From IMG/VR virus record IMGVR_UViG_3300045284_000036, positions 1 through 52,217 of that record: a stretch of DNA of 52,217 bases, one strand, 5' to 3'. Origin of the DNA: a virus. Its lineage: Duplodnaviria; Caudoviricetes. This document shows positions 19,768-34,000 of this stretch, in pieces (position 1 is the stretch's first letter; each line of letters starts with the position of its first letter). The translations under genes were made by a program, and so were the position numbers. The notes beneath the pieces are model-generated. The model was not told the DNA's origin, ran no database searches, and saw only the letters and a list, made by a program, of their open reading frames with translations.

Positions 19768-20045
19768 TCTTTTCCGTTGAGGAATTTCTTGTGAGCTTCA
19801 ACGACGCTTTCGCCAAACATTTTCAGACGGCCATTCACGTCTTCGATCAGCGCTGAATGTTCTTTGATTTGCGCATTGATATCTTCTGCCAGTGCCTTGG
19901 TGCTGGCTAACAGGTTCTGCGCTTCGGTCACTTGATCTTCAGCAGCCCGTATCAGCACGTCGGTCAGTTGGCTCCCGATATCTTGAAACTCATATTTGAC
20001 TTTTGGCGGTTCCGTTCTAATTCCCGTTTCTGCCACATCTGACAT
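19764..20045 (-). CDS. Coiled-coil hypothetical protein
   Basis: 93-aa heptad-like ORF. Confidence 0.6.
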   Translation of the reverse strand: MSDVAETGIRTEPPKVKYEFQDIGSQLTDVLIRAAEDQVTEAQNLLASTKALAEDINAQIKEHSALIEDVNGRLKMFGESVVEAHKKFLNGKE

Positions 20046-20179
20046 GCTTCTTGTGCCTTCTCATAGGTTCGAATGTTGGTTTGAACGACGAGGTATTGTG
20101 CGGTGCCGTCTACCCTGACGACTTCATAGACGCCATGGTCTTCCGTTACTGCGTAAAGAATTTCAGAGATTGACTTCAT
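19964..20179 (-). CDS. Hypothetical protein
   Basis: GGGGAG SD before ATG 20179; first gene after the divergent promoter region. Confidence 0.5.
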   Translation of the reverse strand: MKSISEILYAVTEDHGVYEVVRVDGTAQYLVVQTNIRTYEKAQEACQMWQKRELERNRQKSNMSFKISGAN

Positions 20180-20224
20180 GATGCTCCCCAATTAGAAATT
20201 ATCGCATACGTTATCGCGAAAGGA

Positions 20225-20665
20225 TTGTCAATGCCGATTGAGTGGACTGAAGCGATGTTTGAGATGTTGATAAATCTCGCCAACGATGAAGAGAATTTTA
20301 CTTACGATGTTATCGCAGTAAAAATGAGCGACACGTTCGGAGTGAATTTCACCAAAGGCAGCGTGATTGGTAAAGGCAGAAGATTGGGTATTCCACAGCG
20401 TCCACCGAAGTTGCGAAAGCCGAGAAAAGCAAGGACACTTGAAATGGGACCAATTCCACCACGCATTCCGCGCGCCAAGAAAGGCGAGCAAGTTACTATC
20501 TATCAATTGCGTGAGGGAATGTGTAAGTGGCCGTTTGGCTCTGATCCGCCGTACTTATACTGCGGGTGTCCCGTCAAGAATGCTGGTGGTTCTTGGTGCC
20601 CGGAACACCGCAAGATCGTTCATGGCAAAGTTATTTTCGACAGCGCCATCCCCCTTCGTGGTTGA
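20225..20665 (+). CDS. gcrA: GcrA-family cell cycle regulator homologue
   Basis: N-terminal WT...IA...TKGSVIGKGRRLG and C-terminal L...CKWPFG.P...YCG.P.....WCPEH signature. Confidence 0.88.
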   Translation: MSMPIEWTEAMFEMLINLANDEENFTYDVIAVKMSDTFGVNFTKGSVIGKGRRLGIPQRPPKLRKPRKARTLEMGPIPPRIPRAKKGEQVTIYQLREGMCKWPFGSDPPYLYCGCPVKNAGGSWCPEHRKIVHGKVIFDSAIPLRG

Positions 20666-20969
20666 CCTTGCGCATGCCGTGACGCTTGCAAGTATCTTTT
20701 GCAGGCGTTACGTCAGCCAGCTTGTCTAGTTCGTTCTTTTCATTTTTCGGGATGAATGGCACCGGGGTAATTTTTTCCGTAGGTACTGTCTTGGGTACGG
20801 TCACGTCGTAGGCATTCCATCCCACCATCGACTTGCCGTTAACTTCAAAGGCATGCATCAACGCCTGAAACTTGGCATCTTCGTCAGGTACTACCGGTGC
20901 TACCATCGCCAAGTCATTAGCCATAGCGCTGGTAGTCATCAACAATAAGAACAAGCCTACTTTTTTCAC
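20631..20969 (-). CDS. Putative exported protein
   Basis: Signal-peptide-like KKVGLFLLLMTTSAMA; C-terminal CKRHGMRKV...WRC; GTGA overlap with the primase stop. Confidence 0.6.
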   Translation of the reverse strand: MKKVGLFLLLMTTSAMANDLAMVAPVVPDEDAKFQALMHAFEVNGKSMVGWNAYDVTVPKTVPTEKITPVPFIPKNEKNELDKLADVTPAKDTCKRHGMRKVNHEGGWRCRK

Positions 20970-23284
20970 TGAGCCATCTCCCACGGCATTTTGAATGCAA
21001 ACGGATTTGTCTGCATTCTCGGTTGGCGCGTTTCATTCCAGTCATCACCAATCAACCAGACACTGTCAGAGTTGAACGTGGCGAGACCGCGTATCTTCAG
21101 GCTGTTCAGGCAGTCCTTGCCGTTGACAAAGCCTGCTTCGATTTCCCTGATCGCCACATCGGTCAGCATCATGTAGGTAGCTTCAGGCGGCGCGGTCTCT
21201 GGTGCATATTGCGCCTTGACTTCGGCGGTAGCTGGCGTCTTCGGGCAACCTCTTAGAACATCGATAACGCCTCTAATTCGCTCCCGATACGGAAGCCCCA
21301 CAGCCATGTACCAACCACGCGAAGGCTTGCTGACTTGGTTGTTAGCCATCAGCCGCCCAAGATAGGTTGCCACATTCTTTTCGGTGATGCTGGTACGTTT
21401 GGAAATATCGCCTGCGGTCAGGCAGCACGCAGCTGAACTCAACGCCAACAACACCGCACTAGCTTTAGTGCCTTCGTTTGGCGCGTACAGTTCCTGTACA
21501 GTTTGCGCGGGTTTCCACATTGGACTTCCACCTTCTTTAATCAGTTCGAATTCAAAATCAGCTATGTCGCGCATTCGGCTTTCGATTTTTACAATGTCGC
21601 CATCTCTGCCGATAATAATGCCGCCATCAGCTGCGCCAATGACGCCAAATGATCCGTTGATAGCGTCGATAGCGTCATCTACTTTGCCCTTTTTAACGTG
21701 ATGTACAACGATAATCAAGACGTTGTGTTCTATTGCCAGCTTCTGAATTGCGCCAACAACTTTGTAGTCAACCTGATAGGCATTATCGCTTCTGTCTTGC
21801 GTGCCACGAATACGTTGCAGCACGTCAACCACTACGAACTTGATGTATGGGAAACTGGTCAGATGCGCTTTGATATCATCCAGCAACGTGCCAGTGCCAT
21901 CAGAGTTGACATAAAAGGGACCATCCACCGAATAGCGAAGCCGCAGCCTGTCTTCAACGTTCAGACCAAACGGTCTCAAAATGCTAATGCGTTCCTTGAT
22001 GCGACGTTCGTTGTCTTCCAGCATGTACATCAGGACTTCGTTCTGTACGCATTGCTCGCCCCAGAACTTGCCGCCTTCGGCAATACACATTGCCAGTTCC
22101 AGCACAATCCAGCCTTTGCCGATTTTCGGCTTGCCTGCGAGCACGATGCAGCCGCTGTCAGTCAGGAACCGGTTGACCAGAAATTTAAGCGGCGGAAGGT
22201 TCTTCAGCATCAAGTCTTTGGAAGTCTGCGCGGGATGACCGCGACCGCTTGGCGGTGTCAGCGGGTTCCTTGCGCGCTCTACGGCGATACGCTGGCCTAA
22301 TCCCATTGAAGTACCCACGCCACGCGCGAAGTCCCTGCGGTCCCCTGCGCCAAGTGTTCCCGGTAACACCGCGAAAGCACTCTCGGCGGCTTGACCTATC
22401 TCAATCAGCAGCGGGTTAACGACAACGTCGAATTCAATCATTTCCCTTGAGACTTCACGCGCGGCATCAATCAGCATTGGTGCTTCGCCGCTTGCCTTAA
22501 TCAGTGCGCCATACTTGATGCCGAGATGATGCAGCTTGGTTCCGCGCCCTGAACCCGTTGGGCTGCGCTCCACATCAAAGAGCATGCTCTTTATGCTGTT
22601 GCGGAACTCCTGAAGATTGGCGGGGGTCAGCATGGCAATATCGGCGGCGCACAGCGGCACGGCAGAAAAAAGCATGCTTTTCTGGATTATGGGTATCCCG
22701 GCTGCGGCCAGCCCCGCTTCCATGGCGGCTTTCAACGTCATGGCTGGGACAACGGGCGGCATTTTTTCGAAAATGCTGGGGCCTTCGTGCCAGTATTCTG
22801 CCGGATCTGTCCCTAACGGAACCTTATTCTGGTATACACCGTCCCATACGATTTGCTTTCCCGCGCCAAGCAGCTGCACCGGTCCAAACTTCTCTTGCTT
22901 GATGATGCCCGGCTGCGTGAATACAAGCGTGGCGGGCCGCCTGCCCCAGCGCCATTGATCGCAAGTGAAGAAGGATTGCAGGGTACCAGCAAAAAGCATG
23001 CTTTTTGCGTGCTCGTTAATGTCGCAGTCCATGCCGCGCGCTTCGACCGGTCCCAGCGTCGGGTGGAACACCAGTCCACATTGGATGCCGACACCGGTAC
23101 AGGCGTCGGTATTGATGTGCTGCATTCTCGTTTCGAATGGCAACGTGTTCCATCCGGTGCCACCCATCGGTACCTTGCCCATAACGGGTACAGGGAGTAA
23201 CCCGTGGGTGCTTTGAAGACTGCGCGCCAGATTGAGCAATTCAATTTTTGTCACTGCAACGTTCTTCATGAGGCGGGAATTCAC
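20966..23284 (-). CDS. Primase-polymerase / RepA-like (AAA_25) helicase fusion
   Basis: N-terminal GKVP..W...GVGIQCG...DCD; Walker A AGKPKIGKG, Walker B VVVD, VHHVKK; C-terminal wHTH-like segment. Confidence 0.82.
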   Translation of the reverse strand: MNSRLMKNVAVTKIELLNLARSLQSTHGLLPVPVMGKVPMGGTGWNTLPFETRMQHINTDACTGVGIQCGLVFHPTLGPVEARGMDCDINEHAKSMLFAGTLQSFFTCDQWRWGRRPATLVFTQPGIIKQEKFGPVQLLGAGKQIVWDGVYQNKVPLGTDPAEYWHEGPSIFEKMPPVVPAMTLKAAMEAGLAAAGIPIIQKSMLFSAVPLCAADIAMLTPANLQEFRNSIKSMLFDVERSPTGSGRGTKLHHLGIKYGALIKASGEAPMLIDAAREVSREMIEFDVVVNPLLIEIGQAAESAFAVLPGTLGAGDRRDFARGVGTSMGLGQRIAVERARNPLTPPSGRGHPAQTSKDLMLKNLPPLKFLVNRFLTDSGCIVLAGKPKIGKGWIVLELAMCIAEGGKFWGEQCVQNEVLMYMLEDNERRIKERISILRPFGLNVEDRLRLRYSVDGPFYVNSDGTGTLLDDIKAHLTSFPYIKFVVVDVLQRIRGTQDRSDNAYQVDYKVVGAIQKLAIEHNVLIIVVHHVKKGKVDDAIDAINGSFGVIGAADGGIIIGRDGDIVKIESRMRDIADFEFELIKEGGSPMWKPAQTVQELYAPNEGTKASAVLLALSSAACCLTAGDISKRTSITEKNVATYLGRLMANNQVSKPSRGWYMAVGLPYRERIRGVIDVLRGCPKTPATAEVKAQYAPETAPPEATYMMLTDVAIREIEAGFVNGKDCLNSLKIRGLATFNSDSVWLIGDDWNETRQPRMQTNPFAFKMPWEMAQ

Positions 23285-23666
23285 TCTACTTCACTGAAAT
23301 AAAAAAGCATGCTTTTTCCTATTCGTCCGGTTCGATTTGTTCGTTGGTATCGTAGCGCTCTTTGATATCGCTGCGGTAGCGCGCCATCTTGCGCGCGTGG
23401 CATTTCGGACAAGTGTAGCAAAGGAAGATGCCGTAGCCGTCATACTGCGGCTCACCCGCACCCTTCACCATGCAATCACATTCGACCATCGTTTCTCTCC
23501 CTGAATAAAAGCATGCTTTTTTCGATAGCGCAATCATAATAAGCATGCTTTTTTCGATAACGCAATCCCTAAACAAAAAAGCATGCTTTTTCTTGTGGCG
23601 CTAGTGTCCCAAGGGGCAAAAAAGCATGCTTTTTCCTTTGTTGCAGAGCAAAAAAGCATGCTTTTT
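22577..23666. repeat. Nine dispersed copies of palindrome (A)AAAGCATGCTTT(T)
   Basis: Copies at 22577, 22668, 22989, 23302, 23507, 23541, 23576, 23619, 23651. Confidence 0.92.
23319..23489 (-). CDS. Small Cys-rich protein
   Basis: MVECDC...YDGYGIFLCYTCPKC; GGGAG SD. Confidence 0.65.
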   Translation of the reverse strand: MVECDCMVKGAGEPQYDGYGIFLCYTCPKCHARKMARYRSDIKERYDTNEQIEPDE

Positions 23667-23732
23667 CTTCTTTCCCCAGCCGCCCGGCGCGATGCTGCAC
23701 TGCACCACGCGGCGCTGCACCGCACAATCGGC

Positions 23733-23873
23733 TGGTATACAGTATACCAAGATCGGTGGTATACAGTATACCAGATACCACGGGCTGTGGTATACAGTAT
23801 ACCAGATGCCACCATTCGTGGTATACAGTATACCAGATACCATCGTTCATGGCATTTGGTATACAGTATACCA
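23733..23873. repeat. Array of five 17-bp palindromes TGGTATACAGTATACCA
   Basis: Exact copies at 23733, 23757, 23788, 23819, 23857. Confidence 0.95.
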
Positions 23874-23920
23874 GCAGCCGGTTCCAATGCCCGATAAGTG
23901 GAATTGGAACCATATGCCCG

Positions 23921-24109
23921 TTAACGTTCTTTTTCCTTTTCCCGTGCTAAGTAGTCGAGCGGGTTTGCATTAGCAAACGTGACCGTTGCTAAGTCACGTT
24001 CATTGAGCCGGAACAGCAATCCGGTTAAGTCAATCTGGTCTGGATAGAGCGGACCTTTGATTGCGCTGCGACCGTCCATGTAGTCGAGTGTAATCCATAC
24101 GGCAGGCAT
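23921..24109 (-). CDS. Hypothetical protein
   Basis: 62-aa ORF, last in the small-gene cluster. Confidence 0.55.
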   Translation of the reverse strand: MPAVWITLDYMDGRSAIKGPLYPDQIDLTGLLFRLNERDLATVTFANANPLDYLAREKEKER

Positions 24110-24111
24110 CT

Positions 24112-24249
24112 TTAACCCTTTCGTTCGCGGTCTAGTTCACAGCGGTACAGATACTCGATTGCAGCCACTAGCGCGGCTTGCACTTGTGCTGGCGTCTTGG
24201 CTGCCTTGGCATCGTCTAATAGCTTGGCAAGCTGCAATAGCGGTCTCAT
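24112..24249 (-). CDS. 45-aa hypothetical protein MRPLLQLAKLLDD... (not in ORF track)
   Basis: Read by eye; ATG at 24249, TAA at 24112-24114; amphipathic helix. Confidence 0.5.
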   Translation of the reverse strand: MRPLLQLAKLLDDAKAAKTPAQVQAALVAAIEYLYRCELDRERKG

Positions 24250-24384
24250 ATCTGGCTGCCTGTTCGTTATTCGTGGGACCGTGCTAGGTAGGTACCCTAA
24301 CCCGGAAGGCCATTGCTTGGCCTTCCTACGCCTTCAAGCCCGGACCTTGTTTCCAAGGCCGGGCTATCGGGCTATGTGGGACCG

Positions 24385-24747
24385 TTACCGGTCTAGCTTG
24401 TCCTCATGCTCATACTCTTCGCTGTCCTCATCAGACGGCCAATGGAATGTCTCATCCCTATCATTCCATTCCATGCCAACCGGGACTAACCACAAATCGC
24501 CGTCTTGGTGCAGGCGGTACTGAACGCCGTTTTCATCCGTCACGGTCGCATCCTCGCAAACGTTTTGCCACGCGTCCCAATAGCATTCATTATCATCAGG
24601 ACCGTTTTCAAGATGTGTCCAATCCTGAACGCGAACGCCTTTGACGTGCTTGTCCCGGTCAACAAACGAGTTTGCGAAATCGCGCGGGATGTAAACGCCG
24701 CGACTATCGGACAGCCATAACAGGGTATCGGGTTTCGTTTTAATCAT
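24385..24747 (-). CDS. Acidic hypothetical protein
   Basis: 120 aa; SDSRGVYIPRDFA...YWDAW...L.QDGDLW. Confidence 0.75.
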   Translation of the reverse strand: MIKTKPDTLLWLSDSRGVYIPRDFANSFVDRDKHVKGVRVQDWTHLENGPDDNECYWDAWQNVCEDATVTDENGVQYRLHQDGDLWLVPVGMEWNDRDETFHWPSDEDSEEYEHEDKLDR

Positions 24748-24959
24748 TGGAAAATATCCTTCATAGCGGTTTCAATGTGCTGGTCGTTGTAGTTGCGATA
24801 GAGTTCAATCAAGTTAACGCGGCCCTTTTGCCGCGCCATGTGCAGAACGTTCCAGCGTTCGTAATTGCTGCCGATTTGGCTAGGCTGAATGTTGAATTCC
24901 GCTAGCGTATCAAGCAACCCGGTTCGCAGTGTTTCGTAGTCAGCCTTTTTCATTTTCAT
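24744..24959 (-). CDS. Hypothetical protein (start MKMKKADY)
   Basis: GGAG SD; ND.HIETA C-terminal motif. Confidence 0.65.
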   Translation of the reverse strand: MKMKKADYETLRTGLLDTLAEFNIQPSQIGSNYERWNVLHMARQKGRVNLIELYRNYNDQHIETAMKDIFQ

Positions 24960-25362
24960 TGGTTTGCTCCATTGTGAAAAAGGGTTTCGGGTTTCCAGCG
25001 TCAACATGCATGGTCCAATAATGACCGCGTGCCGTTACCTTGCCGTCGTCGGAATATTCGCAAGCGCCGATGCCGTTGCGCTCGTAATAGTCCGCGCGCT
25101 TGCTATGCGTCGAGTAAAACGTTCCAGCATAGAAACCACCATGAACAAGGCTATAGCGGTACAGATTATCAGTCAGGCATTTTTGATAGCCTCTGACAAA
25201 TTCACGCGTCCATCCGGGACAACGGTCTAGTGTTGTCAGGATATCGCAAAAGCGCGAGTTGATATTGGCTGATGACATGCCGAAGCTTTCCGCGCGGCTG
25301 TACAAATCGCGCAATGATGAAACCGCGCTATCCCGTTTCCTAAGTGCAAGTGATATGTCCAT
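24940..25362 (-). CDS. Hypothetical protein
   Basis: 140 aa; AAGGA SD immediately after hairpin element 2. Confidence 0.7.
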   Translation of the reverse strand: MDISLALRKRDSAVSSLRDLYSRAESFGMSSANINSRFCDILTTLDRCPGWTREFVRGYQKCLTDNLYRYSLVHGGFYAGTFYSTHSKRADYYERNGIGACEYSDDGKVTARGHYWTMHVDAGNPKPFFTMEQTNENEKG

Positions 25363-25447
25363 TGCTTTTCCTTTCAGGGCTTATTCCCTACGCCTTCAAG
25401 CCCGGTAATGCTTTCGCATGCCGGGCTTAAACGCGATTTGAAAGAGG

Positions 25448-25720
25448 CTAGCTATAGCGGCCCTTTTGCATGTGTATCCATTCCGACAAATCATTGCGTG
25501 CGCGTTCAATATCTTTTTTGCCGGAATATTTCGCACCAGTGATGCTGCTAGCCTTGTCGAGCGCGAGTTTAAGGCTTGTCCATGTCCTATGAGGTTTGAT
25601 GCCGACAGCCATTAAGCCAAGCCCGGATCTAAGCGCGGCTGCATTGAATACTGCGACAGCATCGCCACTAAACGAGCGCGCGTTTCCGTTTTCGTCATAA
25701 GTGATTTTGTTCTCTTGCAT
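25448..25720 (-). CDS. Hypothetical protein
   Basis: 90 aa; stop just before hairpin element 2. Confidence 0.7.
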   Translation of the reverse strand: MQENKITYDENGNARSFSGDAVAVFNAAALRSGLGLMAVGIKPHRTWTSLKLALDKASSITGAKYSGKKDIERARNDLSEWIHMQKGRYS

Positions 25721-25724
25721 GATG

Positions 25725-25928
25725 CTAGCCTTTCGATGGTTTGAGGATATAGGCGAACCGGTATGCTTCCGGGTTATTCTCTTTCAGATTGCGCATATAA
25801 ACGTCAGCTAGCGCTTTCGTGCTAGCGGCATAGATCCAACGCATTTGGTTTGGTGGATCTATCACAACGTTCCACGTTGTGGCGCTGTATAGCGGCGTTT
25901 TGCTTTTGGATTGATGCCACGTTGCCAT
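25725..25928 (-). CDS. Hypothetical protein
   Basis: 67 aa, tightly packed; GAGG SD. Confidence 0.65.
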   Translation of the reverse strand: MATWHQSKSKTPLYSATTWNVVIDPPNQMRWIYAASTKALADVYMRNLKENNPEAYRFAYILKPSKG

Positions 25929-25931
25929 GGT

Positions 25932-26201
25932 CTAAGCCTCTTCCTTCAAACGACGGTAACGACGAATAGGTGATGATCCGTTGTAATGTTCGCAACGAAT
26001 AGTCGGCTCGCCATACATGGCTTGAAACGCGTTCAAAAACTTTCCAGCGTCGCAATCCTCTTCTAAATATAAATCGTCATTCTTGCGATACGAATACCGG
26101 CTGAAATCATTGATGTGGAAACGCAGCATGGTGATTTCAGCAATGGTGACGCGCAACCAACCATGACCGTTGTCAGTGTGCAGTGTGAAAACTTTTCGCA
26201 T
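25932..26201 (-). CDS. Hypothetical protein (start MRKVFTLHTDNGHGWL)
   Basis: AGGA SD after hairpin element 3; D.GHGWL...SRYSY...YLEEDCD motif. Confidence 0.75.
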   Translation of the reverse strand: MRKVFTLHTDNGHGWLRVTIAEITMLRFHINDFSRYSYRKNDDLYLEEDCDAGKFLNAFQAMYGEPTIRCEHYNGSSPIRRYRRLKEEA

Positions 26202-26289
26202 TGTGTGGTTTCCTATGCCGGGACTATTCCCTACGCCTTCAAGCCCGGTAATGCTTTCGCATGCCGGGCTTGGGATTGTTTGGCTAGGC

Positions 26290-27171
26290 TTAGGCCCATC
26301 CAAACTTTTCAGCGCATATCGGACCAATGCCGCGAAGCTTCCATGCTGACTTTAGAGTGGCGTTGCAAATGCAGCATGTGCCGGTGGTTTGGCCGTACAC
26401 TTTCGCGGCTTGTTCTGGATCTGCAACGAAGGCTTGAACCTTGGCAGTATCAGCGGGCGTACAAGCCGCAACGGCATGAAAGCGACCGTTTGCAATCTTG
26501 CCTAGATACTCGGTCCCGGCTTTCACATAGAGCGCACCGGGATTTGCGCTATGCGCTTTGGCCGGGCTGATTGTCATGCCGTCAATTGTGATACGCGGCG
26601 AAAGCTTCAAGCCCTTTGCAGCGCTATACGCTACCGCCTGATCGAACGAAGCTTTCAGCCGGTCAATCCCTGCCTGATCCACAGCGGGCTTATCAGCGGG
26701 CTTGGCAACCCTTGCAGCGTCCCGTTCAATGCCGCGCTGAACAAGCAGCATTTGCTTTTCGGTCAGCGAACCATATTGCTGCAAGCCCGCCAGCAATGAC
26801 GCGGCCACATCCCAACGTGCAGCGGTCTTTTCCAGCCAAGCATATTCAGCCGGGTTGGCATCTTTCCAGATTTGAACGAAACCGGCTTTCATATCAGCCC
26901 GCCTTTCTGTTGCTTTTTCTCTGTTCTGTTCACGGGTTGCGGCTGACGTTTTGAACGTCTTGGAACCTTTACCCTTGCAAGCAAAGCATTCACCCAAGAC
27001 GCGGCCAGACCACGAGGTAAAACGTCCCGTTCCGTTGCACTTGCTGCAACCTTCTTCAAAGCGCTGAACGGCTGATTTGTAGACCGGGATTGCGCGAACC
27101 GGAACGAAAGGTTCAGCGGGACCGGTATCACCGGCGAATAATGCGTCTAGGCTATCATTTAGATCAGACAT
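26290..27171 (-). CDS. Zinc-finger protein with DUF6011-like C-terminus
   Basis: CSKCNGTG/CFACKGKG DnaJ-type repeats; C-terminal CCICNATL...GIGPICA. Confidence 0.8.
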   Translation of the reverse strand: MSDLNDSLDALFAGDTGPAEPFVPVRAIPVYKSAVQRFEEGCSKCNGTGRFTSWSGRVLGECFACKGKGSKTFKTSAATREQNREKATERRADMKAGFVQIWKDANPAEYAWLEKTAARWDVAASLLAGLQQYGSLTEKQMLLVQRGIERDAARVAKPADKPAVDQAGIDRLKASFDQAVAYSAAKGLKLSPRITIDGMTISPAKAHSANPGALYVKAGTEYLGKIANGRFHAVAACTPADTAKVQAFVADPEQAAKVYGQTTGTCCICNATLKSAWKLRGIGPICAEKFGWA

Positions 27172-27200
27172 TGGTTTCCCCTAAAGGTTATGGCCCTAAC

Positions 27201-27236
27201 CCGATAACGTTATCGGATTAGAGCCAAAACTGTCAA
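27201..27236 (-). promoter_or_regulatory. Promoter TTGACA-N16-GATAAC overlapped by perfect palindrome CCGATAACGTTATCGG
   Basis: -35 at 27231-27236; palindrome at 27201-27216. Confidence 0.7.
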
Positions 27237-27328
27237 CCGATAATTGCGGCTATCCCGAACGCCATGGTCGAAATGAACAGGATTAAGACGGCAGCCGATA
27301 GCCAGTCTGCAACGGTATCATCGGTCAT
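27233..27328 (-). CDS. 31-aa single-TM peptide
   Basis: MTDDTVADWLSAAVLILFISTMAFGIAAIIG; GAGG SD. Confidence 0.45.
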   Translation of the reverse strand: MTDDTVADWLSAAVLILFISTMAFGIAAIIG

Positions 27329-27545
27329 GGTTGCAAGCCTCAATGAACCGGTCAGCATTAAACTTGCCATTGGACCGTTTGCAGGCAGCCACAAACGAAT
27401 TAATGACCGATTGCCATTGTGCCATTTTGTTAGCATCCCAATGTGGAGCGGGCTTGCTGTCAGCCATAACCGCTGCAATGAAACAGAAATGACGATGTTG
27501 CAATTCCGGCGTTTTATTCATGGTTGATTTGTCGCGTCCGTTCAT
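27318..27545 (-). CDS. Hypothetical protein
   Basis: GAGG SD after hairpin element 4; HF.FIA...N.KFNADRFIEAC motif. Confidence 0.7.
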   Translation of the reverse strand: MNGRDKSTMNKTPELQHRHFCFIAAVMADSKPAPHWDANKMAQWQSVINSFVAACKRSNGKFNADRFIEACNHDR

Positions 27546-27637
27546 GGTACCTCGCAAAGTTAAGAGGCAGGATTGCCTCTAATGCTTCAAGCCCGGTAAT
27601 GCTTTCGCATGCCGGGCTTGATAGCGTGTTGACCGGT

Positions 27638-27961
27638 CTATGCGGCGGTCAACCTATCCTCAAAATTTTCCAGCATATCGCGGGCGTGTGCTAGCGCGTG
27701 GCTCAATGCATCCTCGCGCAATGTGAGAACGGCGCGGTCTTTACGACCGTTGAAAAACACGCGGTTATCCCGTCCCGATACGACGGTAGCCAAATCGACA
27801 GCGACAGCATGACAAACGTCGTTGTTGACCTTGACGGCCAGATGATATTCCGGCCAAACGAAAACATAGCCATAGGTGCGGCTATTGCGTTCAGCGGTTA
27901 GCGCGGTTTCAAGCTTGGCAACGTTAGAGCGCAACACGCGCAAAAATTGGTTCTTATCCAT
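27638..27961 (-). CDS. Hypothetical protein
   Basis: 107 aa, between hairpin elements 5 and 4. Confidence 0.7.
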   Translation of the reverse strand: MDKNQFLRVLRSNVAKLETALTAERNSRTYGYVFVWPEYHLAVKVNNDVCHAVAVDLATVVSGRDNRVFFNGRKDRAVLTLREDALSHALAHARDMLENFEDRLTAA

Positions 27962-28059
27962 TTGTTTATTCCCCTATGGGACCGGCTTGATTGCCTCTCC
28001 TACGCCTTCAAGCCCGGATCATGTTTCCATGACCGGGCTATATTGGGCTGTAAATGCGT

Positions 28060-28248
28060 TTACCTATGACGCTTCCACTTGTGCGCAGTTTCGGAATAGC
28101 GCGCCACTCGCGCTAGGTTGCTTTCCAAATGAGTGGCGATTTCATCGTCAGAGAGAAACCCGCAAAATGTCATAATGTCTTGATTGCAGCATGCGGGATG
28201 ATTTTGGACTTGAGCAACGGCAGCAATCAGATCAGCGCGGCGGGACAT
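28060..28248 (-). CDS. Hypothetical protein, first gene of the leftward small-gene cluster
   Basis: GGAGG SD; preceded by palindrome CGATAGCGTTATCG at 28295-28308. Confidence 0.7.
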   Translation of the reverse strand: MSRRADLIAAVAQVQNHPACCNQDIMTFCGFLSDDEIATHLESNLARVARYSETAHKWKRHR

Positions 28249-28309
28249 AGGGCAAAGCCTCCAAATCGGGTTAAGATGACATATCTAACCATGCCGATAG
28301 CGTTATCGT

Positions 28310-28859
28310 AAAGTAACGTATTGTTACAATGGACCGCCTCTAGGATTGAATTAGGGGCTTGTGGGATAGCCCTACATGACCGGGCTAGTTTGGTACCCTA
28401 TTCGCGTTTTAACGCATGGGTGACGTTTTCGCGTTTTGTTCTCCGAGCAATTGCTAGCTAGTGTATACACTAGGTTGTAATTGACTGGGCAAAAGGCCAT
28501 CCCACAAGAAACCCAACAACAGCCCTACAAATGCTGATTGTGGGATTGACCGGTCTTGGAAAGATTAGCGAATTCGCGATAGTCCCACAAAATAAACCCG
28601 GCTGCTTTAGAGGTATGTGAAAATTAGTGGGCTTGTAGTAAAGCGATAACGGTAAATATCAGGATACCTATGGACCGGGTTAGGGGCTGCCACAATGCTG
28701 CCATGTTTCCCGGACGCGTCCCACGAAAAAAGGCCAAAACCACAAGCAATCCTACACTCTGTAAACAGCGCATGTTTACGAAAACACTAGCGAATTCGCT
28801 CTAATACCTACAACCCTACAAAATCCCTTTAAAACAGCCCTTTTCGTGTGGGATGTATT
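28310..28859. other. Non-coding region with repeated TGTGGGAT/CCCACA/CCTACA motifs and palindromes
   Basis: No ORF of 60 aa or more; CTAGTGTATACACTAG at 28458-28473; TAGCGAATTCGC at 28566 and 28788. Confidence 0.6.
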
Positions 28860-29276
28860 TTAGCGCGTTTTATGCAATCGGTCGATTATGTGCAGATCTG
28901 GCGCGGATTGCGCGAGCGCGTAAAATGCGATTGGAGCGCGGTCCATTGCGATGTGGAGCAAGTGATAGGTTGGACCGTAAAAGAGGCTTTCAACGACGCC
29001 AATGGCGCGGCCCGCCTCAATGCGCGCGGTTACTAGGTCAATAGCGCTTGTTGCGTGTTTGATCTGCCATTGCGCGCCTTCGTAGGAAAGCACGGCAGCA
29101 AATAGCAGATTAAGGGCATCTAGGACTAAGTCAGCTTGATCTGCTGGTAAGCGCAGCATTTCGCGCTTTACCGGCATCAGATCTAGTCCGGGTTGCTTGA
29201 GCGCGCGAGCACCAGCGTCAAGAATGTCTGATAGCTCGTTGCGCGCCTCTCGATACAGCGTCAAATCATTAGCCAT
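28860..29276 (-). CDS. Helical hypothetical protein (start MANDL)
   Basis: 138-aa Leu/Ala-rich ORF divergent from 29344. Confidence 0.55.
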   Translation of the reverse strand: MANDLTLYREARNELSDILDAGARALKQPGLDLMPVKREMLRLPADQADLVLDALNLLFAAVLSYEGAQWQIKHATSAIDLVTARIEAGRAIGVVESLFYGPTYHLLHIAMDRAPIAFYALAQSAPDLHIIDRLHKTR

Positions 29277-29343
29277 TGCGTTGACCCTACGGGTTAGTGT
29301 ATACGATCTGATTGTGGGATAGTCCCACATTGGAGGATTGAAC

Positions 29344-29631
29344 ATGCGTTTAGAGGTTATCGACTATGCCGCTATGGTTGACGAATTAGCGGAACTAAAA
29401 GCAGCCATTGCGCCATTGCAAGCGCGCGAGGATGCAATCAAAACCGCGCTCAAGGCAACGGGACGGGACCGGATTGACGGAACCGAACATACCGCTGTCG
29501 TGACGCTGTCGGAACGGGAAACAATCGACAGCAAAGCGCTTAGGGCTGATTTGGGCGAGGCTATCATTGCGCCTTACCTCAAGCGGTCCATTGTCGAGAC
29601 CTTGAAACTAACAGCCCGCAAGACGCATTAG
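29344..29631 (+). CDS. Hypothetical protein with N-terminal coiled coil
   Basis: GGAGG SD; VDELAELKAAIAPL...IKTALK. Confidence 0.75.
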   Translation: MRLEVIDYAAMVDELAELKAAIAPLQAREDAIKTALKATGRDRIDGTEHTAVVTLSERETIDSKALRADLGEAIIAPYLKRSIVETLKLTARKTH

Positions 29632-29642
29632 GACGGTCGCTG

Positions 29643-29810
29643 ATGCATCATGCAATCTGGCTGGCCGGATTGCTAGGCTTGATCGCATTCGCCTTTGGTG
29701 AGGCTTGTGCAGTCATCCTAGCCCGGTTCCTGATCTATGCAGCCTTGACAGCTGCGCTGCTATTGGCCCTTGACGTGCTAACCCATGGGCGGCTGTCGGA
29801 TCTGATCTGA
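29643..29810 (+). CDS. 55-aa membrane protein MHHAIWLAGLLG... (not in ORF track)
   Basis: Read by eye; two hydrophobic stretches; followed by a strong hairpin. Confidence 0.55.
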   Translation: MHHAIWLAGLLGLIAFAFGEACAVILARFLIYAALTAALLLALDVLTHGRLSDLI

Positions 29811-29819
29811 CCTATTAAT

Positions 29820-29854
29820 AGGCCCGGAACGGTATAGCCCCGTTCCGGGCCTTT
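29820..29854 (+). terminator. 13-bp hairpin, terminator-like
   Basis: AGGCCCGGAACGG/CCGTTCCGGGCCT followed by only TT; base of stem (GCCCGG/CCGGGC) equals that of the repeated element. Confidence 0.55.
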
Positions 29855-29866
29855 CGGCTGCGCAGC

Positions 29867-29997
29867 TGGCATCTGGTATACTGTATACCATATGCCACAT
29901 GCCAGCGACCTTGGTATCTGGTATACAGTATACCAGAGGGGCTGGCATAATGTATACCAGATGCCAGCAATGCTGGTATACTGTATACCAGATGCCA
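29867..29997. repeat. Second array of TGGTATACWGTATACCA palindromes
   Basis: Copies at 29874, 29919, 29974 and a degenerate copy at 29943; flanked by TGGYATC/GATGCCA. Confidence 0.93.
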
Positions 29998-30193
29998 AAA
30001 GGTACCGCAATGCACAAAAGGGTGGTACATCGTCTTTCGGGTACCGGTAACAAGCTTCGGCTGGGGCAGGGGGTCTCTCGAAATTTACCCCACCCCCAAA
30101 ACTTTTAGTATACAAGTTTACATAAAGCATGCTACTGAAGGGGATGAAAAAACGCATAATGATGCTAGAACAACAGCTTGAATACATAAAGGA

Positions 30194-30391
30194 GTGTTCC
30201 CAATGGATGAAGATGAACCTGACTTCCAAGACCCCGGAGGGCGCTCCGCTCTGCGCCGATCAACCCCCAAAAACCCCCGTAACTTACCATGCCCGAATTG
30301 CGGGGCCAAAAACCGACTAACCCCCAAAGACCGGTCCCTTGGCTATCAGTGCGACGAGTGTGCCGATAAGTTGGAGCGTGGTTGTGACTGA
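30194..30391 (+). CDS. Small zinc-finger protein
   Basis: CPNCG...YQCDECAD; AAGGAG upstream. Confidence 0.7.
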   Translation: MFPMDEDEPDFQDPGGRSALRRSTPKNPRNLPCPNCGAKNRLTPKDRSLGYQCDECADKLERGCD

Positions 30392-30662
30392 TCCCAAACC
30401 CGTCCCCTTCCCCAGAGCGGTCCCCAAGCGACGGTTGAGGCGGTCCCCGTCCAAGACCAAGCGTAAACTCAAACCGGCCACCTATCACGATATGGCCCGC
30501 CGCCGAGGGCTGGCTGTCAAAAAAGCGGTATGCGGTGGCTGGTATGTGACCATTATGACGGCTAACGAAACTTTCGTGCCGGTGCTATATTGTACGCATA
30601 CGTGGAGCAGGATTGGCGCGTTCATCAAAAAACAGCCGATTTTGATATCGACCGAAGAGTAG
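30384..30662 (+). CDS. Basic hypothetical protein
   Basis: GGAG before GTG; Arg/Lys-rich. Confidence 0.5.
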   Translation: MTDPKPVPFPRAVPKRRLRRSPSKTKRKLKPATYHDMARRRGLAVKKAVCGGWYVTIMTANETFVPVLYCTHTWSRIGAFIKKQPILISTEE

Positions 30663-30666
30663 GGCT

Positions 30667-30858
30667 ATGCGACCGAACACGCCGGTTATTGCCGAATGGT
30701 ATACGTGCTTCGTGCCGTGCAGGCGGGTAGCGGTCGTTGTGCGCTACTCGCTGGCGCAGCAATGGCTTGAACAGGGAGCCAAATTCAGTATCAAGATCAT
30801 TGATCCGGTCCTCGTAAACCATGCCAACGTGATAGCTATTTCAAAGGTCAATCAATGA
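30667..30858 (+). CDS. Hypothetical protein
   Basis: 63 aa, tightly packed. Confidence 0.5.
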   Translation: MRPNTPVIAEWYTCFVPCRRVAVVVRYSLAQQWLEQGAKFSIKIIDPVLVNHANVIAISKVNQ

Positions 30859-31028
30859 GCATTGCATCGCTGCCAAAGCCTATCAAACCACGGCTGCGCG
30901 ATGACGAGGCGATAGCCGAGATGTGCAAATGGCTGAAGGCGCGCGGGCTGATTGCACTGGGTACACGGCGCGGTCAGCTGGTCATCATGGACAAGCCGCC
31001 CATGGACGAAGAAGGGCTGAAATGCTAG
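30855..31028 (+). CDS. 57-aa hypothetical protein MSIASLPKPIKP... (not in ORF track)
   Basis: ATGA overlap with the previous gene; TAG at 31026-31028. Confidence 0.5.
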   Translation: MSIASLPKPIKPRLRDDEAIAEMCKWLKARGLIALGTRRGQLVIMDKPPMDEEGLKC

Positions 31029-31067
31029 GTCTTGGGTTCCATCCCCCTTTGAGGGCGGTTTTCAACC

Positions 31068-34000
31068 ATGGATCTAGACGTAGCCGGTCCCGACATATCG
31101 GGCGAAAACCAGTTCAACCTCAACCCCGGCAGCGGCATCGATCCGGGCCGGTTGGTGCGGGCTATCCCCACGGCAGCAACGGCTGTCTACCCCGAAACGT
31201 CATCTGAACTGGTCGCGCCGGTCTCGGTAACAGCTGCACCGCGCGGTTCAGAAACCCGGCCCATCGCCGCTGCGCCGGGAAGGCCGGTCGATCTGGCACC
31301 GGTCAATCCGGTACGGCTGGCGCAGGCGCAGCCCGTTGCCCCCGTGGTGACGCGCGGCTCGATTGCGCCAACGGTCTCCACCGACGCGGTCGATGCCGCT
31401 GGCGCAGGCGACAAGCCACGCCCGGCCCAATATCCCGGCGAAGGCAAAGGTGTTGGCGGTACCCTGCGCAGAATGGACCCCGGCTACCAAGGCCCCGATG
31501 TCAACCCGCTGGAACAGGAACGCCAGCAGCTGATTGCCCGGCGCGATATCGCTGCGCGCAAGGCGCAGGGACCGCTGATGCAGATACTGGATACCGAATG
31601 GTCGAAGAACCAAGCCAAGGAAGCCGAACTGGCTAACCAGCGTATCGGCCAGATCGACCAGCAGCTGCAAGCCCAGAAGACCAACGCCCAGTACGCCAAG
31701 AACATGGGCATCGAAAAGAACATGGGCGCGACGGCTGACACGGCAGCGATCAACGAACAGGCGCTTGAAGAATGGCGCAAGAACGGCAACCTCAACGCCT
31801 ACAAGGGGCTGCATGGCGCGGGGCTGGGCGGTCGCGCCGATCTGTACATGGACGAAGGCATTGCAGCGCTGGGCAAGAAAACCGATAACGCTAACACTTT
31901 GATCGAACGGCTTTCCAACGCACCAACCCAGCCCGCGTACAATCAGATCCGCAACGACATTCTGAAAGGGGCCAAAACCCCCGGTCACGATTATTCGCAA
32001 TTCGGCATCAGCGATGAAAATCTGCCAAAGACCAAAACCGAATTTGACGCGCGGCGGCCCGACATTACCGCCAAGCTGAATAACGCGTCCACCATGGTCA
32101 GCCAGTTTCAGCAGAAGCAGCGCGAACTGTCGCAAGTGAAGCCGATCACCGACGAGAAAGTTGGCGGTCAGGTCACCGGCAGGCACAAGTTTGCTACCGG
32201 CGAAGTAATGCCCAACACAAGCCCGGTGACGCTGCCAAATGGCGCACAGGGTGCGCAGGCGCAGCAAAATTCCAAAGACTTGCATAATTACGGTACCGGG
32301 GGTCCAAACAGCTGGAATAACGCCACGCCCGGTCAGGCCGAAACCTTCGTCAAGCAACTCGCCACCGAAGAAGTCAAAGGCGCGCTAGGTCAGTACAAGA
32401 TGGCGAAAGCGTTTTCCAACGCCGCCAACAACAACGAACTTTATAAATATCCAGCCGGTCATGCCTTTCTGGCTGACGCGCTTGGCGCGATTGGCCGTGA
32501 CGTGGCTGAAGGTTCAAAGGCCGCAGGCTCGATTGGTCTGGTTAAAATTCTTGAGAGCAAGTATGGCGGCGTTGAAAACTTTTTGAATGGTGCCACCAAC
32601 AACTGGGCCGCCTACAAGGCGTGGGTTCAGGGCGGCAGAAAAGGCGAAGAAGTCAAACTTATGCCGCGCCTGACCCAGCAATCAATTGAAGGCTACAAGG
32701 CGGTTGCCAATTTCAAGATGGAAGAGACCAAGAAAGAACTGGACCGTCTTGGTTCGCCCATCGAAACGGCGGGGCGCTACGGCATTGCGCTTGACAAGCT
32801 TGGACTGGACAAGGAAACGCAGGAACTGGTCAAGCCAATACATAGCAAGGCGGTAGAAGAAGCCCGTCTTGCTTATGACAAATATCCCTACATGGTCGTC
32901 GGTTCGACGCGCGTGATGCTGCCGGAAGATGCCAACGTGCCCGGCATGAAACCAGCGGGCGGCTACGCCAAAGAGCGCGGCACGGCAGCGATTGAAACGC
33001 TTGAGAAAGCGCCACCGGGAAGCCCGCCGCCGCCTGCCACACCCGGTGGTCCTCCGGGCGGCCCGCCTTCGACGGTGGTGCCATCAGCCATCAACAGAAC
33101 GCCAGCGGCGCAAGTGGTGTACGGCGCGGCGGGCGAGACCGCGCATAATCTGTCAGGCGGCAACGTCAACGTTGCCAAGAACGCGGCGACGATTGTCACG
33201 TCTTCGGCACAGAGCGAAAGCGATTTCAAACACGATGCCACGCATGACGTTGATCCAAAAACCGGGCAGCCCATCGGTCAGGGATTGTTTGGTCACAACG
33301 CAGACCGTCTGAAGGCATTGCAAACGTTTGCTGGTGTGCCTGCAACTGGCAAACCCGGTGCGCCCATTCCGCCCGACGTACAATCCAAATTCTTTGCCCG
33401 CGAACTGATGACAGCGGCATCGACCGACAGGTTCATTGCGGCAACGCTGAACAATCCGAATGCCACGGCGGAAGACTTGACCAAAGTCCAGATCCGGCTG
33501 GAAAAACCCGCTGGCTACAAGGGACCGGGCACGGAAGAAAAAGTGCCAAGCTGGAATAAGCGGCTGGCTTCGACGCGCTTGCTGGCAGAGGGACCGGAAA
33601 CGCAAGCGCCGCCACCCCCGGCTGGGCATACCCAAGCGCAGACCCCGGCTTCGCTCAAACTGCCCTACCCCAACCCCAAGACACGCGAAGAAGCACAGGC
33701 CAATTACGCTGCCGGGCAGCGCCAGAGTGCGGAAGAGGCTGCCGCCTACATAGCCCGCAGGAACGCGCTGGCAGCGCAGGCGACAACGTCGGCTGCCAAC
33801 ATAGCCCCGGCAGCTTTAGGCACCGCTGGAGCCGTCGTAGGCAGCGTGGGAGGCCCTGTAGGCACACTGGCAGGCGGCACCGCTGGCGGCGCAGCGGGTG
33901 GCGCGATCAAGAATTACTTTACGGGCGGGGAAGCCAATCAAAATCTGCCCGGTTATGCCAAGGCGACCGGGATAGGTGCGGCACAGGGCGCGGTCGCAGG

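Follow-up and report, generated by a model that had tools for sequence, protein, structure and literature searches.

The early mRNA of phage T7 reportedly carries a series of RNase III signals (R0.3, R0.5, R1, R1.1 and R1.3) at which it is cleaved, as Dunn and Studier are said to have set out in 1983. When we folded the early intergenic gaps of T7 (NC_001604), which we take to be these RNase III sites, the record itself carrying no annotation of them, they gave sequence-related hairpins of -18 to -26 kcal/mol directly after stop codons, with a 9-13 bp upper stem and, in four of the five folds, an interrupted lower stem. Lambda-type nut sites consist of a single-stranded boxA 5' of a hairpin, boxB, whose loop sequence is the conserved and recognised part; the SAS of Cluster K mycobacteriophages stands immediately upstream of a start codon and is in practice the ribosome-binding site itself. 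In the published accounts, the SAS consensus is a 13-nt sequence, GGGATAGGAGCCC (PMC3203893), the promoter-early stem-loop (PeSL) of T4-type phages couples a promoter of the sigma-70 type (-35, N17, -10) to a stem-loop (PMC4122927; see also PMC2839356), and HK022 put is an RNA of about 70 nt with two stem-loops, one site behind each early promoter, acting over at least 10 kb (PMC9378689).

In the window, by which we mean the whole stretch of DNA analysed here (52,217 nt, the complete 52-kb genome of a soil phage), we find a repeated element whose layout resembles that of the T7 sites: several sequence-related hairpins in the gaps of one early operon, after a stop codon and before the next ribosome-binding site, each apparently an irregular hairpin of about two helical turns with a variable upper part, conserved flanks and no terminator tail. 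Sequence similarity to the T7 sites is not detectable, and cleavage at the present element is a prediction. The element is also much more GC-rich and more stable (-28 to -48 versus -18 to -26 kcal/mol), its internal loop lies 3-5 bp below the tetraloop whereas the larger T7 loop lies below a stem of about 10 bp, and, unlike the T7 sites, it is common to phages with unrelated proteomes.

A preliminary description of the locus had drawn an analogy to PeSLs, of which one part stands. As in the accounts of PeSLs, conserved intergenic repeats in a single orientation occupy plastic, ORFan-rich early regions, at the boundaries of insertions, deletions and replacements between close relatives. The promoter part does not hold: no promoter-like site was found at any copy and nothing is conserved past about +15, which sets the element, a long, covarying and sequence-conserved hairpin without a promoter, outside the PeSLs. 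The likeness to SAS/ESAS (PMC3203893, PMC12699233) lies in an inverted repeat, imperfect and with two arms of about 17 nt, ahead of a conserved purine-rich box containing UAGGAG, and in a single orientation upstream of the start codons of some non-structural genes. However, the box of our element, (G)GCGUAG(G/A)AG, is mostly paired into the lower stem and lies at variable distance from the start codon (37-88 nt for the window copies and 12-121 nt across the family); the element is anchored to the upstream stop codon, belongs to another phage group and has no sequence similarity to SAS/ESAS, to which we do not assign it. Nor does it qualify as a lambda nut site, since the boxA-like 5' flank (AUCGCNCUYA) is complementary to, and covaries with, the 3' flank, and it is the stem that is conserved, the loop taking several forms (GAAA, GCAA, UUCG, GCCA).

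Five copies in the early-gene array

The element lies in an array of small genes read leftwards, in the direction of the primase/helicase gene (20966-23284). The protein families represented in the array are phrog_4046, phrog_21544 and phrog_34049, and a 293-aa protein, whose gene precedes copy C, has a weak C-terminal match to DUF6011 that falls under Pfam's cutoff. The features are as follows.

24112..28248, minus strand: array of about 13 small early genes, the majority assigned to no family
27962..28059, minus strand: copy A, whole intergenic element from just past the TAA of a 62-aa ORF to just short of the ATG of a 107-aa ORF (CM score 57.6 bits); core hairpin 28012-28038, weak second hairpin at about 27979-28000
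27546..27637, minus strand: copy B (CM score 57.5 bits); core hairpin 27591-27617, second hairpin 27563-27580 (7 bp)
26202..26289, minus strand: copy C (CM score 69.4 bits); core hairpin 26243-26269, second hairpin 26220-26231 (4 bp)
25363..25447, minus strand: copy D (CM score 68.9 bits); core hairpin 25400-25426, second hairpin 25375-25390 (5 bp)
24250..24384, minus strand: copy E (CM score 60.8 bits); core hairpin 24338-24364, second hairpin 24304-24326 (9 bp)
28375..28393, minus strand: possible truncated copy, 5' arm only, identical to the 5' arm of copy A at 17 of 19 nt

All five copies described earlier were found again at their positions on the minus strand, in the orientation of the genes, together with their inner stems (TCATG/CATGA, ATGC/GCAT in three copies, and CCTTG/CAAGG), a GAAA loop in every copy, the identical run of 47 nt common to two of them (C and D; copy B has 35-36 nt in common with both) and the variant linker of a single copy, B, which reads GAAGCAUUAG. 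Their number is far beyond chance: the pattern GCCCGGN{10,20}CCGGGC has 6 matches in the window against 0.05 expected, a count reached by none of 100 shuffles, and five of the six are the copies, the last (29822-29850) being a different hairpin. The sequence CCGGGCTTGAAG occurs exactly 5 times in the window (0 forward, 5 reverse), always on the minus strand. Fold energies of the copies range from -28.4 to -48.4 kcal/mol (z from -3.6 to -7.2). Their placement is likewise as first described, with a stop codon ahead of each (TAA, TAG, TAA, TAG, TAA) at a gap of 20-21 nt and the next ATG 37-88 nt downstream.

The possible truncated copy is located in the long non-coding region upstream of the array; it is only a lead, a rough estimate giving about one such match by chance per ten regions of that size.

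Architecture of the hairpin and selection for its structure

The core of the family consists of GCC(C/G)GG, an unpaired C, a covarying stem of 3-5 bp, a tetraloop (mostly GNRA, some UUCG), an unpaired YA and CC(G/C)GGC. In the window this conserved asymmetric interruption appears as C opposite UA in copies B, C and D and as a bulged U in copies A and E. Beyond the core, the 5' flank and the so-called linker form a lower stem whose two strands covary, so most of the linker is paired rather than single-stranded; in copy B the lower stem is preserved by another sequence, GCU/AGC. With this interruption and the added lower stem, the simple two-tier stem first proposed proved wrong. The whole hairpin comprises about 15-19 bp, that is, the tetraloop, an upper stem of 3-5 bp, a 1x2 internal loop (C opposite YA), a 6-bp middle stem and a lower stem of 4-9 bp, with an often mismatched position at the junction of middle and lower stems (unpaired in 21 of 37 copies). 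Including the lower stem, it begins about 10-12 nt past the upstream stop codon. At the helix foot both sides are conserved, the 5' one as CA(C/A)AU, free of any constraint from the search patterns, and the 3' one as GUAG, which two retrieval patterns partly fixed; the exact search patterns used likewise imposed much of the invariance that appears in the core and 3' flank. Conservation ends at about +15.

The covariation looked for in homologues was found. The three or four inner pairs each occur as all four Watson-Crick types (for example AU 18, GC 12, UA 4, CG 2), and the covariation score over 38 distinct rows is 0.319, against 0.076 +/- 0.012 in shuffles, none of 500 scoring as high, and at most 0.063 in slid controls. 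The middle stem shows a compensated swap, GCCGGG/CCCGGC, in four further copies. For the lower stem, position -3/+3 (n=37) is CG in 22 copies, UA in 6, UG in 6 and other in 3, and in a set retrieved with no flank constraint except two U's after the core, each copy's own 5' flank folds better than that of another copy (-25.96 versus -24.70 +/- 0.31 kcal/mol; none of 300 permutations reached so low a value). Applied to the wider alignment, RNAalifold recovered the 9 core pairs only and not the lower stem, at whose outer three positions no more than about half of the cells are paired. The flank-unconstrained set (n=43) has the loop GAAA in 20 copies, GCAA in 12, UUCG in 3, GCCA in 3 and other in 5; G-U cells are about twice as common as A-C cells (43 versus 22), and every copy is oriented like its flanking genes. 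Covariation in the upper, middle and lower stems, GNRA/UUCG loops on the coding strand and the excess of G-U over A-C bear out the earlier proposal of selection for structure, and place it on the transcribed strand.

The same cannot be said of a two-hairpin unit, as the element had been presented, since only the first hairpin is conserved and the second is optional. The latter is strong only in copies B and E, falls to 4-5 bp in C and D and is weak in A. It is present in about half of the family, and is clearly better than shuffles in 7 of 37 and 7 of 43 copies in two sets (mean z -0.39 and -0.61).

Position relative to the upstream gene is kept as well. In 27 of the 35 copies that have an upstream ORF, its stop codon ends 19-21 nt before the core (the remaining distances being 8, 23, 23, 24, 32, 43, 54 and 64 nt), and in a second set the distance is 19-23 nt in 30 of 42. 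This spacing is found beside unrelated genes; the distance from core to start codon varies between 12 and 121 nt across the family. In a scan of the window, none of the five copies coincided with a sigma-70-like promoter site or a terminator-like site, which upholds the reported absence of a conserved -10 and of a U-tract. After the stem come two U's and then a purine at +3 in 38 of 38 copies, where R was fixed by the retrieval pattern, and a scan with a free 3' flank also gave a purine at +3 in nearly every family-like copy listed. That scan caught two genuine U-tract terminators with the same stem ends (L272 and L280), which look different. The element is thus a GC-rich hairpin without the U-tract of an intrinsic (Rho-independent) terminator.

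Distribution and shuffled gene blocks

More than 70 distinct copies were found in uncultured, mostly soil, phage contigs with a GC content of 52-67%, some from phages having almost no proteins in common with this one. The presence expected in relatives was thus confirmed: a relative with 69% identity carries the element too, as do many other phages, and it sits among small early or non-structural genes in the window as in carriers G001, G003 and G007. The flanking proteins are mostly singletons, 41 of 48 being without a Pfam family, and BLAST at 1e-5 found no window protein in common with G005 or G007. A strict form of the pattern matched 185,579 bacterial species genomes at 2 places, neither convincing (without the family's inner stem and context). 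The search of Rfam called for earlier gave no match above threshold. The best candidate, RF02424 (Bp2_287, a Burkholderia sRNA candidate), reached 27 bits against a gathering score of 70, with only the first hairpin aligning; the Burkholderia locus was matched once per genome record and looks like an opposite-strand terminator because of an A-run 5' of the stem.

We compared gene order in the window with that of the related phages L029, L060, L075, L058 and L053, and found the element at the boundaries of insertions, deletions and replacements. L060 and L075 carry a 90-aa gene, the element, a gene with an HRHFC motif together with a DUF6011-like gene, the element again and a 140-aa gene. In the window only copy D stands between the 90-aa and 140-aa genes, and the HRHFC/DUF6011-like block is found at another place, bounded by copies B and C. 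The order of the two blocks is reversed in L029. Short assembled contigs from the available runs, which break at the repeats and so could not reveal a joint between two copies, showed none. The comparison of gene content that had been called for revealed the same blocks, bounded by the element, at differing places, and this comparative synteny points to a putative role of the element in recombination.

Possible roles of the element

From the structure, conservation, position and shuffled modules observed, we infer, tentatively and at somewhat under an even chance, an intercistronic RNA processing and stabilising signal analogous to the RNase III sites of T7 early mRNA, which would double as a recombination linker in the manner of T4-type PeSLs; cleavage, stabilisation and a recombination mechanism are its predicted components. 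Mechanistically, the element would act in cis as an RNA signal in a polycistronic early mRNA made by the host RNA polymerase. A double-strand-specific host nuclease would cut near the junction of middle and lower stems, leaving the upstream cistron with a terminal hairpin that would block 3' exonucleases, while the downstream cistron would start near its own leader, often a small second hairpin with a ribosome-binding site (AAGGGGA or GGAGG) after it. The result would be insulation of every gene or gene block from its neighbours. In turn, the 60-70 nt of conserved sequence could serve as a homology patch for the exchange, deletion and movement of cassettes, because it is repeated in one orientation and common to several phages. 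The T7-type helix has its cut site in an internal loop, between a lower stem and about 10 bp of upper stem; here 3-5 + 6 bp stand above the junction and 4-9 bp below it, the conserved loop being small (1x2) and near the top and the lower stem absent from the RNAalifold consensus.

RNase III needs little sequence specificity, and such a processing signal leaves unexplained the near-invariant middle stem, C/YA loop and GUAG in phages that have almost no proteins in common and lie 15 points of GC apart. This pattern suits a sequence-specific binder better. An operator for an RNA-binding protein, of the host or of the phage but too diverged to recognise, could control translation or decay of the neighbouring genes, the protein recognising the C/YA loop together with the middle stem and the single-stranded flanks. 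Stem and internal-loop sequence are indeed kept while the loop and upper stem vary freely, the motifs at the helix foot are conserved (GUAG with the retrieval constraint given above), and the conservation spans phages with unrelated proteomes. However, no protein family accompanies the element among the mostly singleton flanking proteins, the window shares no protein with G005 or G007 by BLAST, and a host protein should have host targets, whereas the strict pattern gave just the two unconvincing places; we consider an operator rather unlikely. The conservation across unrelated phages and the missing partner gene would also be accounted for by an RNA that, like HK022 put, needs no protein and affects RNA polymerase during transcription, by anti-pausing or antitermination, and whose sequence is kept because polymerase is conserved. 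Location in early operons and the two-hairpin outline recall put as described (PMC9378689), a structured RNA that works in cis in an early phage operon and has no protein partner. Yet in that account put stands once behind each early promoter, whereas here a single conserved hairpin is repeated up to five times within 4 kb of an operon, following a translated ORF each time, and conservation does not extend to the second hairpin. The region shows no excess of terminator-like sites over shuffles (13 versus 14.3), so such an RNA would have nothing obvious to override. We regard a put-like action as improbable, and the element lacks the defining features of put and boxB, to which it had been likened.

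The very stable GC-rich hairpin right behind stop codons, with a C-rich spacer after the stop codon, is also what a partial transcription stop or pause would look like, an attenuator grading expression along the early operon through host polymerase halting at hairpins without a U-tract. Here, however, the stem is followed by two U's and then a purine, the 3' side is paired into the lower stem, and ordinary terminators keep no sequence across unrelated phages, so attenuation is of low probability. Shuffled modules bounded by the element, identical runs of 35-47 nt in one genome, occurrence in unrelated phages and the possible truncated copy would agree with a chiefly selfish or neutral recombination linker that spreads with the cassettes it moves, its RNA fold being a way of being harmless in mRNA. 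But recombination requires sequence identity; it has no need of compensatory pairs, of favoured tetraloops or of a constant orientation and placement with respect to stop codons, and a mere linker is therefore equally doubtful. Finally, an imperfect palindrome with a conserved extrahelical base, GTAG at the helix foot and a cassette-like layout could belong to single-stranded DNA, serving for example in priming or replication, or recognised as a hairpin by a transposase or recombinase (REP/RAYT-, IS200/IS605- or integron attC-like). Against this, the loop preferences (GNRA, UUCG) are of RNA type, orientation always follows transcription, the strict pattern places no convincing copy in bacterial chromosomes, and the 59 window proteins scanned, which represent part of the ORFs, include no transposase, RAYT or integrase; on these searches the element does not group with REP/RAYT or IS200/IS605 repeats, and any function as single-stranded DNA is highly improbable.

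Calling the locus a new system was an overstatement: the element is a new, uncatalogued family of RNA motifs, but the kind of phage signal that it represents is already known. To return to a T7-like processing signal that doubles as a linker, the hairpin may mark the points at which a long early message is cut or protected, and those at which gene cassettes are swapped.

The five copies and their genomic setting

With its direct terminal repeats, the 52,217-base window is a complete virus record; in it, about 13 small genes, most of them without any family, form a leftward array between an operator-rich switch region and the primase gene. Its main features are as follows:

Plus strand of the window: terminase, head, connector, tail-fibre and endolysin genes
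Leftward replication block: helicase, exonuclease, Gp2.5-like single-strand-binding protein and family A DNA polymerase genes
20966-23284, leftward replication block: primase/helicase gene
24250-24384, minus strand: element copy E
25363-25447, minus strand: element copy D
26202-26289, minus strand: element copy C
26290-27171, minus strand: gene of a protein with a weak DUF6011 match
27546-27637, minus strand: element copy B
27962-28059, minus strand: element copy A
Near 29,850-30,040: operator-rich switch region

No RNA polymerase gene was found in the window, and the host polymerase is therefore taken to transcribe the small-gene array. Cultured relatives of the DNA polymerase reach no more than 28.5% identity. 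A 1422-aa protein (31068-35336, plus strand) is without a Pfam, PHROG or PDB match and has a 42% identical homologue in the carrier genome G001; its language-model neighbours, which are weak leads, come from phages and contain lytic transglycosylase or P22 gp16-like domains, and the protein itself may be an ejection protein.

The preliminary description had placed five copies of a repeated element between these small genes. All five are present at the claimed sites on the coding (minus) strand, and this observation is confirmed. Their number is beyond chance: the palindrome frame occurs six times in the window against 0.05 expected, and five of these occurrences are the copies. As described, each lies between a stop codon and the next gene, beginning 20-21 nt past the stop and ending 37-88 nt ahead of the next ATG. 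The reported 47-nt identity holds for copies C and D, while B is identical with C and D over 35-36 nt. Folding energies range from -28 to -48 kcal/mol (z from -3.6 to -7.2), and no promoter-like or terminator-like site was found on any of the five copies, in line with the original statement that a U-tract and a conserved -10 are missing. No Rfam family matched anywhere in the window at gathering thresholds (0 matches), and the 69%-identical relative L029 carries two copies whose inner stems differ. The sixth frame match (29822-29850), which has GCCCGG/CCGGGC ends around an unrelated interior, sits in the switch region, immediately behind the stop codon that closes a short plus-strand ORF (29643-29810), and is probably an ordinary terminator.

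Other repeats occur in the same region. An 18-nt palindrome, TGGTATACAGTATACCAG, is present in five copies with 24-38 nt spacing at 23733-23874, directly upstream of the primase operon, and clusters again in the switch region at about 29880-30040; L029 has both clusters. They probably serve the phage repressor as two sets of operators, one at either end of the small-gene array. Six copies of another palindrome, AAAAAGCATGCTTTTT, fall within about 370 nt (23297-23667) separating the array from the primase gene, and L029 conserves them at 7704-7799; the arrangement resembles an origin or an iteron-type binding array, in which ORFs that were called (e.g. 23319-23576) may be spurious. A further, unrelated family of palindromes lies upstream of genes, as CCGATAACGTTATCGG or CGATAACGCTATCG at 27187-27230 and about 28290-28305 in the window and as GATAGCGCTATC at 5055-5068 and 6312-6325 in L029, and is probably a DNA operator. 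Some 600 nt ahead of the first small gene (28250-28860) have no convincing ORF and contain many GTGGGA...TCCCAC-type repeats (families D8-D10); this stretch may hold an early promoter, a non-coding RNA or an origin.

Fold of the element

The element consists of a middle stem, an upper stem of 3-5 bp closed by a tetraloop, and a lower stem formed by the flanks (positions -9 to -2 with +2 to +9, consensus CGCNCUYA / URAGNGCG), and covariation was found in all three segments. In the upper stem, four Watson-Crick types occur at every pair and the covariation that had been proposed was borne out (score 0.319 versus 0.076 +/- 0.012), with none of 500 shuffles reaching the score and slid controls at or below 0.063. 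The middle stem seemed invariant at first because the search patterns had fixed it; once two pattern positions were relaxed, four copies with the compensated pairing GCCGGG/CCCGGC were recovered. For the lower stem, position -3/+3 is CG in 22 cases, UA in 6, UG in 6 and other in 3, variant copies still pair through other sequences, and copies of the set collected with both flanks free fold better with their own 5' flank than with that of another copy (0 of 300 permutations as low). Support for this stem is partial, as RNAalifold did not return it and only about half of the cells keep pairing at its outer three positions.

The folded strand is the mRNA strand. On this strand the loops are GAAA (20), GCAA (12), UUCG (3), GCCA (3) and other (5) among 43 copies, and G-U cells outnumber A-C cells by 43 to 22.

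The architecture originally proposed, two hairpins joined by a linker, stands in part. The first hairpin is conserved, and includes an asymmetric interruption, with C facing UA or with a bulged U, that had been overlooked. The second can be drawn by eye in about half of the copies, beginning directly after GUAG, but it is neither conserved nor, as a class, better than shuffles. The linker exists; it is mostly paired with the 5' flank, a pairing that the first reading had missed. Many copies end in an AAGGGGA-type ribosome-binding site, with AGGGGA found within 80 nt in 18 of 43.

Distribution among phages and gene blocks

A pattern drawn from the part common to the window and L029 recovered the same hairpin in 6 further viral contigs and 32 metagenome stretches, and in these loci a covariance model built from 13 copies gave 40 matches at E <= 1e-8, 38 of them distinct. 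Scanning with both flanks free yielded at least 120 loci and at least 47 distinct hairpins with an inner stem of at least 3 bp; the model matched 39 times at E <= 1e-5 in the first 100 of these loci. The exact window-type pattern gave 23 single matches in viral contigs, about the chance number by our own estimate, and 8 of the 16 stretches found with the CCGGGCTTRARGGCGTA pattern had no hairpin. Relaxing the middle stem gave 23 stretches, of which 11 were not complementary. The viral contigs L272 and L280 have ordinary U-tract terminators with the same stem ends, GCCCGGC...TACCGGGC, and the stem frame alone is thus not diagnostic of the family.

The five copies of the window are the most seen, other carriers having one or two. 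These carriers are not one lineage: G001 and the window have most proteins in common, while the genomes G003, G005 and G007 (GC 60-67% versus 52%) have almost none. The element was not found in any cultured phage: among 50,697 phage records megablast of 20000-32000 gave no match, and the 13 matches that blastn returned for one copy were all partial, attributable to chance and short of 80% coverage. The strict pattern occurred at two places only in 185,579 bacterial and archaeal species genomes, neither convincing. The two non-source sequencing runs with at least 30% of the region's sampled words, X2 and X3, are both labelled soil metagenomes, and none of the runs listed as containing the region is an RNA run. 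Taken globally, the element is well supported as an uncatalogued structured RNA family of uncultured soil phages, with more than 70 distinct copies and crossing phage lineages.

Comparing gene content among relatives, as had been proposed, revealed element-bounded blocks at different places. In L060 and L075, homologues of the 90-aa and 140-aa genes of the window flank a block of two genes, one with an HRHFC motif and one DUF6011-like, and an element stands on either side of this block. The window has only copy D between its 90-aa and 140-aa genes; its block is found 1.5 kb upstream, between copies B and C. L029 has the two blocks in reverse order, and L058 and L053, which share the DUF6011 gene-plus-element junction, carry much shorter arrays behind it. 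PMC4122927 describes the same pattern of shuffled blocks for the promoter-early stem-loops (PeSLs) of T4-type phages; the element here has no promoter. In four DNA runs, the contigs assembled over 23000-29000 break at the repeated copies and join no two of them; they contain a single joint, between 23874 and 29000 on opposite strands, which is due to the operator repeats.

Candidate functions

The core lies 19-21 nt beyond the end of the upstream stop codon in 27 of 35 copies. Below this spacing the distribution stops sharply, save for one copy at 8 nt, and above it there is a tail (23, 23, 24, 32, 43, 54 and 64 nt). Each of the three stop codons is used, and the upstream genes are mutually unrelated; often (7 of the copies examined) the gene has a DUF6011-type end motif (…GIGP.CA.K…). 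Besides the window, DUF6011-type proteins are encoded in L029, L053, L058, L059, L060 and L075; three of the six homologues scanned pass the Pfam cutoff, the other three and the window's own protein falling below it, and no relative of the latter was found in bacterial genomes. Two other copies follow DUF932 proteins. The spacing fits either a functional link to the terminating ribosome or a compact genome whose genes end where a constrained 20-nt 5' part of the element starts. By our own reckoning from ribosome footprints, the base of the lower stem presumably lies a few nucleotides past the leading edge of a ribosome on the stop codon.

Several known identities were rejected. The stem is followed by UU and then a purine, with the 3' side paired, which argues against an intrinsic terminator, and the lack of -35 and -10 boxes against a promoter or PeSL. 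A nut-like site is disfavoured by the pairing of the boxA-like flank and by the loop being the variable part, a put-like antitermination RNA by the conservation of only one hairpin and the presence of five copies in one operon, and a REP-like repeat by its absence from the bacterial genomes searched. N4-like hairpin promoters of a phage RNA polymerase lack a polymerase gene, the 1422-aa protein having no structural match. Stop-codon read-through or bypass is at odds with stop-to-start distances of 101, 95, 91, 88 and 136 nt, not in one frame, and a CRISPR-repeat mimic (RNA anti-CRISPR) with a conserved part that is too long and with no array-like multi-copy match in bacterial genomes. The core shape, in our view, resembles intron domain 5 (AGC at the base, 2-nt bulge, GNRA loop); the ribozyme and group II intron models of Rfam gave no match. 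At E <= 5 over 24200-28300, Rfam returned only a chance miRNA match and Bp2_287 (PMC3521395), which scored 27 against a threshold of 70 bits and aligned by one hairpin only. In Burkholderia that hairpin looks like an opposite-strand terminator.

The best explanation, which we favour tentatively and with somewhat less than even confidence, is intercistronic processing and stabilisation of the early message, with a second role, suggested by the arrangement of the blocks, as a recombination linker. Folding the T7 early intergenic gaps, which we take to be RNase III sites, gave about five irregular hairpins of related sequence, each placed after a stop codon and ahead of the next ribosome-binding site in a single early operon; their tops vary and their flanks are conserved. 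The element follows the same logic. Taking the 3-5 bp and 6-bp stems together as one upper stem of about 10 bp puts the -1/+1 position, which is often mismatched, where T7 sites have their internal loop, and an RNase III-type cut would be predicted near this position. RNase III does not account for a near-invariant sequence across unrelated phages, and for this reason we keep sizeable odds on a sequence-specific binder or on an RNA that docks on polymerase or ribosome. In its boldest form, which we consider improbable, the element would be a self-sufficient RNA docking on the elongating RNA polymerase or on a ribosome fresh from termination 10-12 nt upstream. It would act by anti-pausing, antitermination or control of re-initiation, and would form a new class of horizontally mobile, protein-independent intercistronic regulators. 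Docking on a universally conserved host machine would explain why the sequence, and not only the fold, is constant in phages with unrelated proteomes and hosts.

What is new is the RNA motif family; the kind of signal is already known. Something new is likeliest to be hidden in the sequence invariance and in the fixed distance from the upstream stop codon, and should the docking RNA prove true, any early gene placed behind the element would be expressed in any host. Under processing and stabilisation, the T7 way of cutting the early message at conserved hairpins would be widespread and portable, and the element a natural compact insulator for building operons. As a boundary of swapped blocks, it offers a concrete way into the exchange of ORFan early genes among phages; many such genes probably serve in host takeover or anti-defence.
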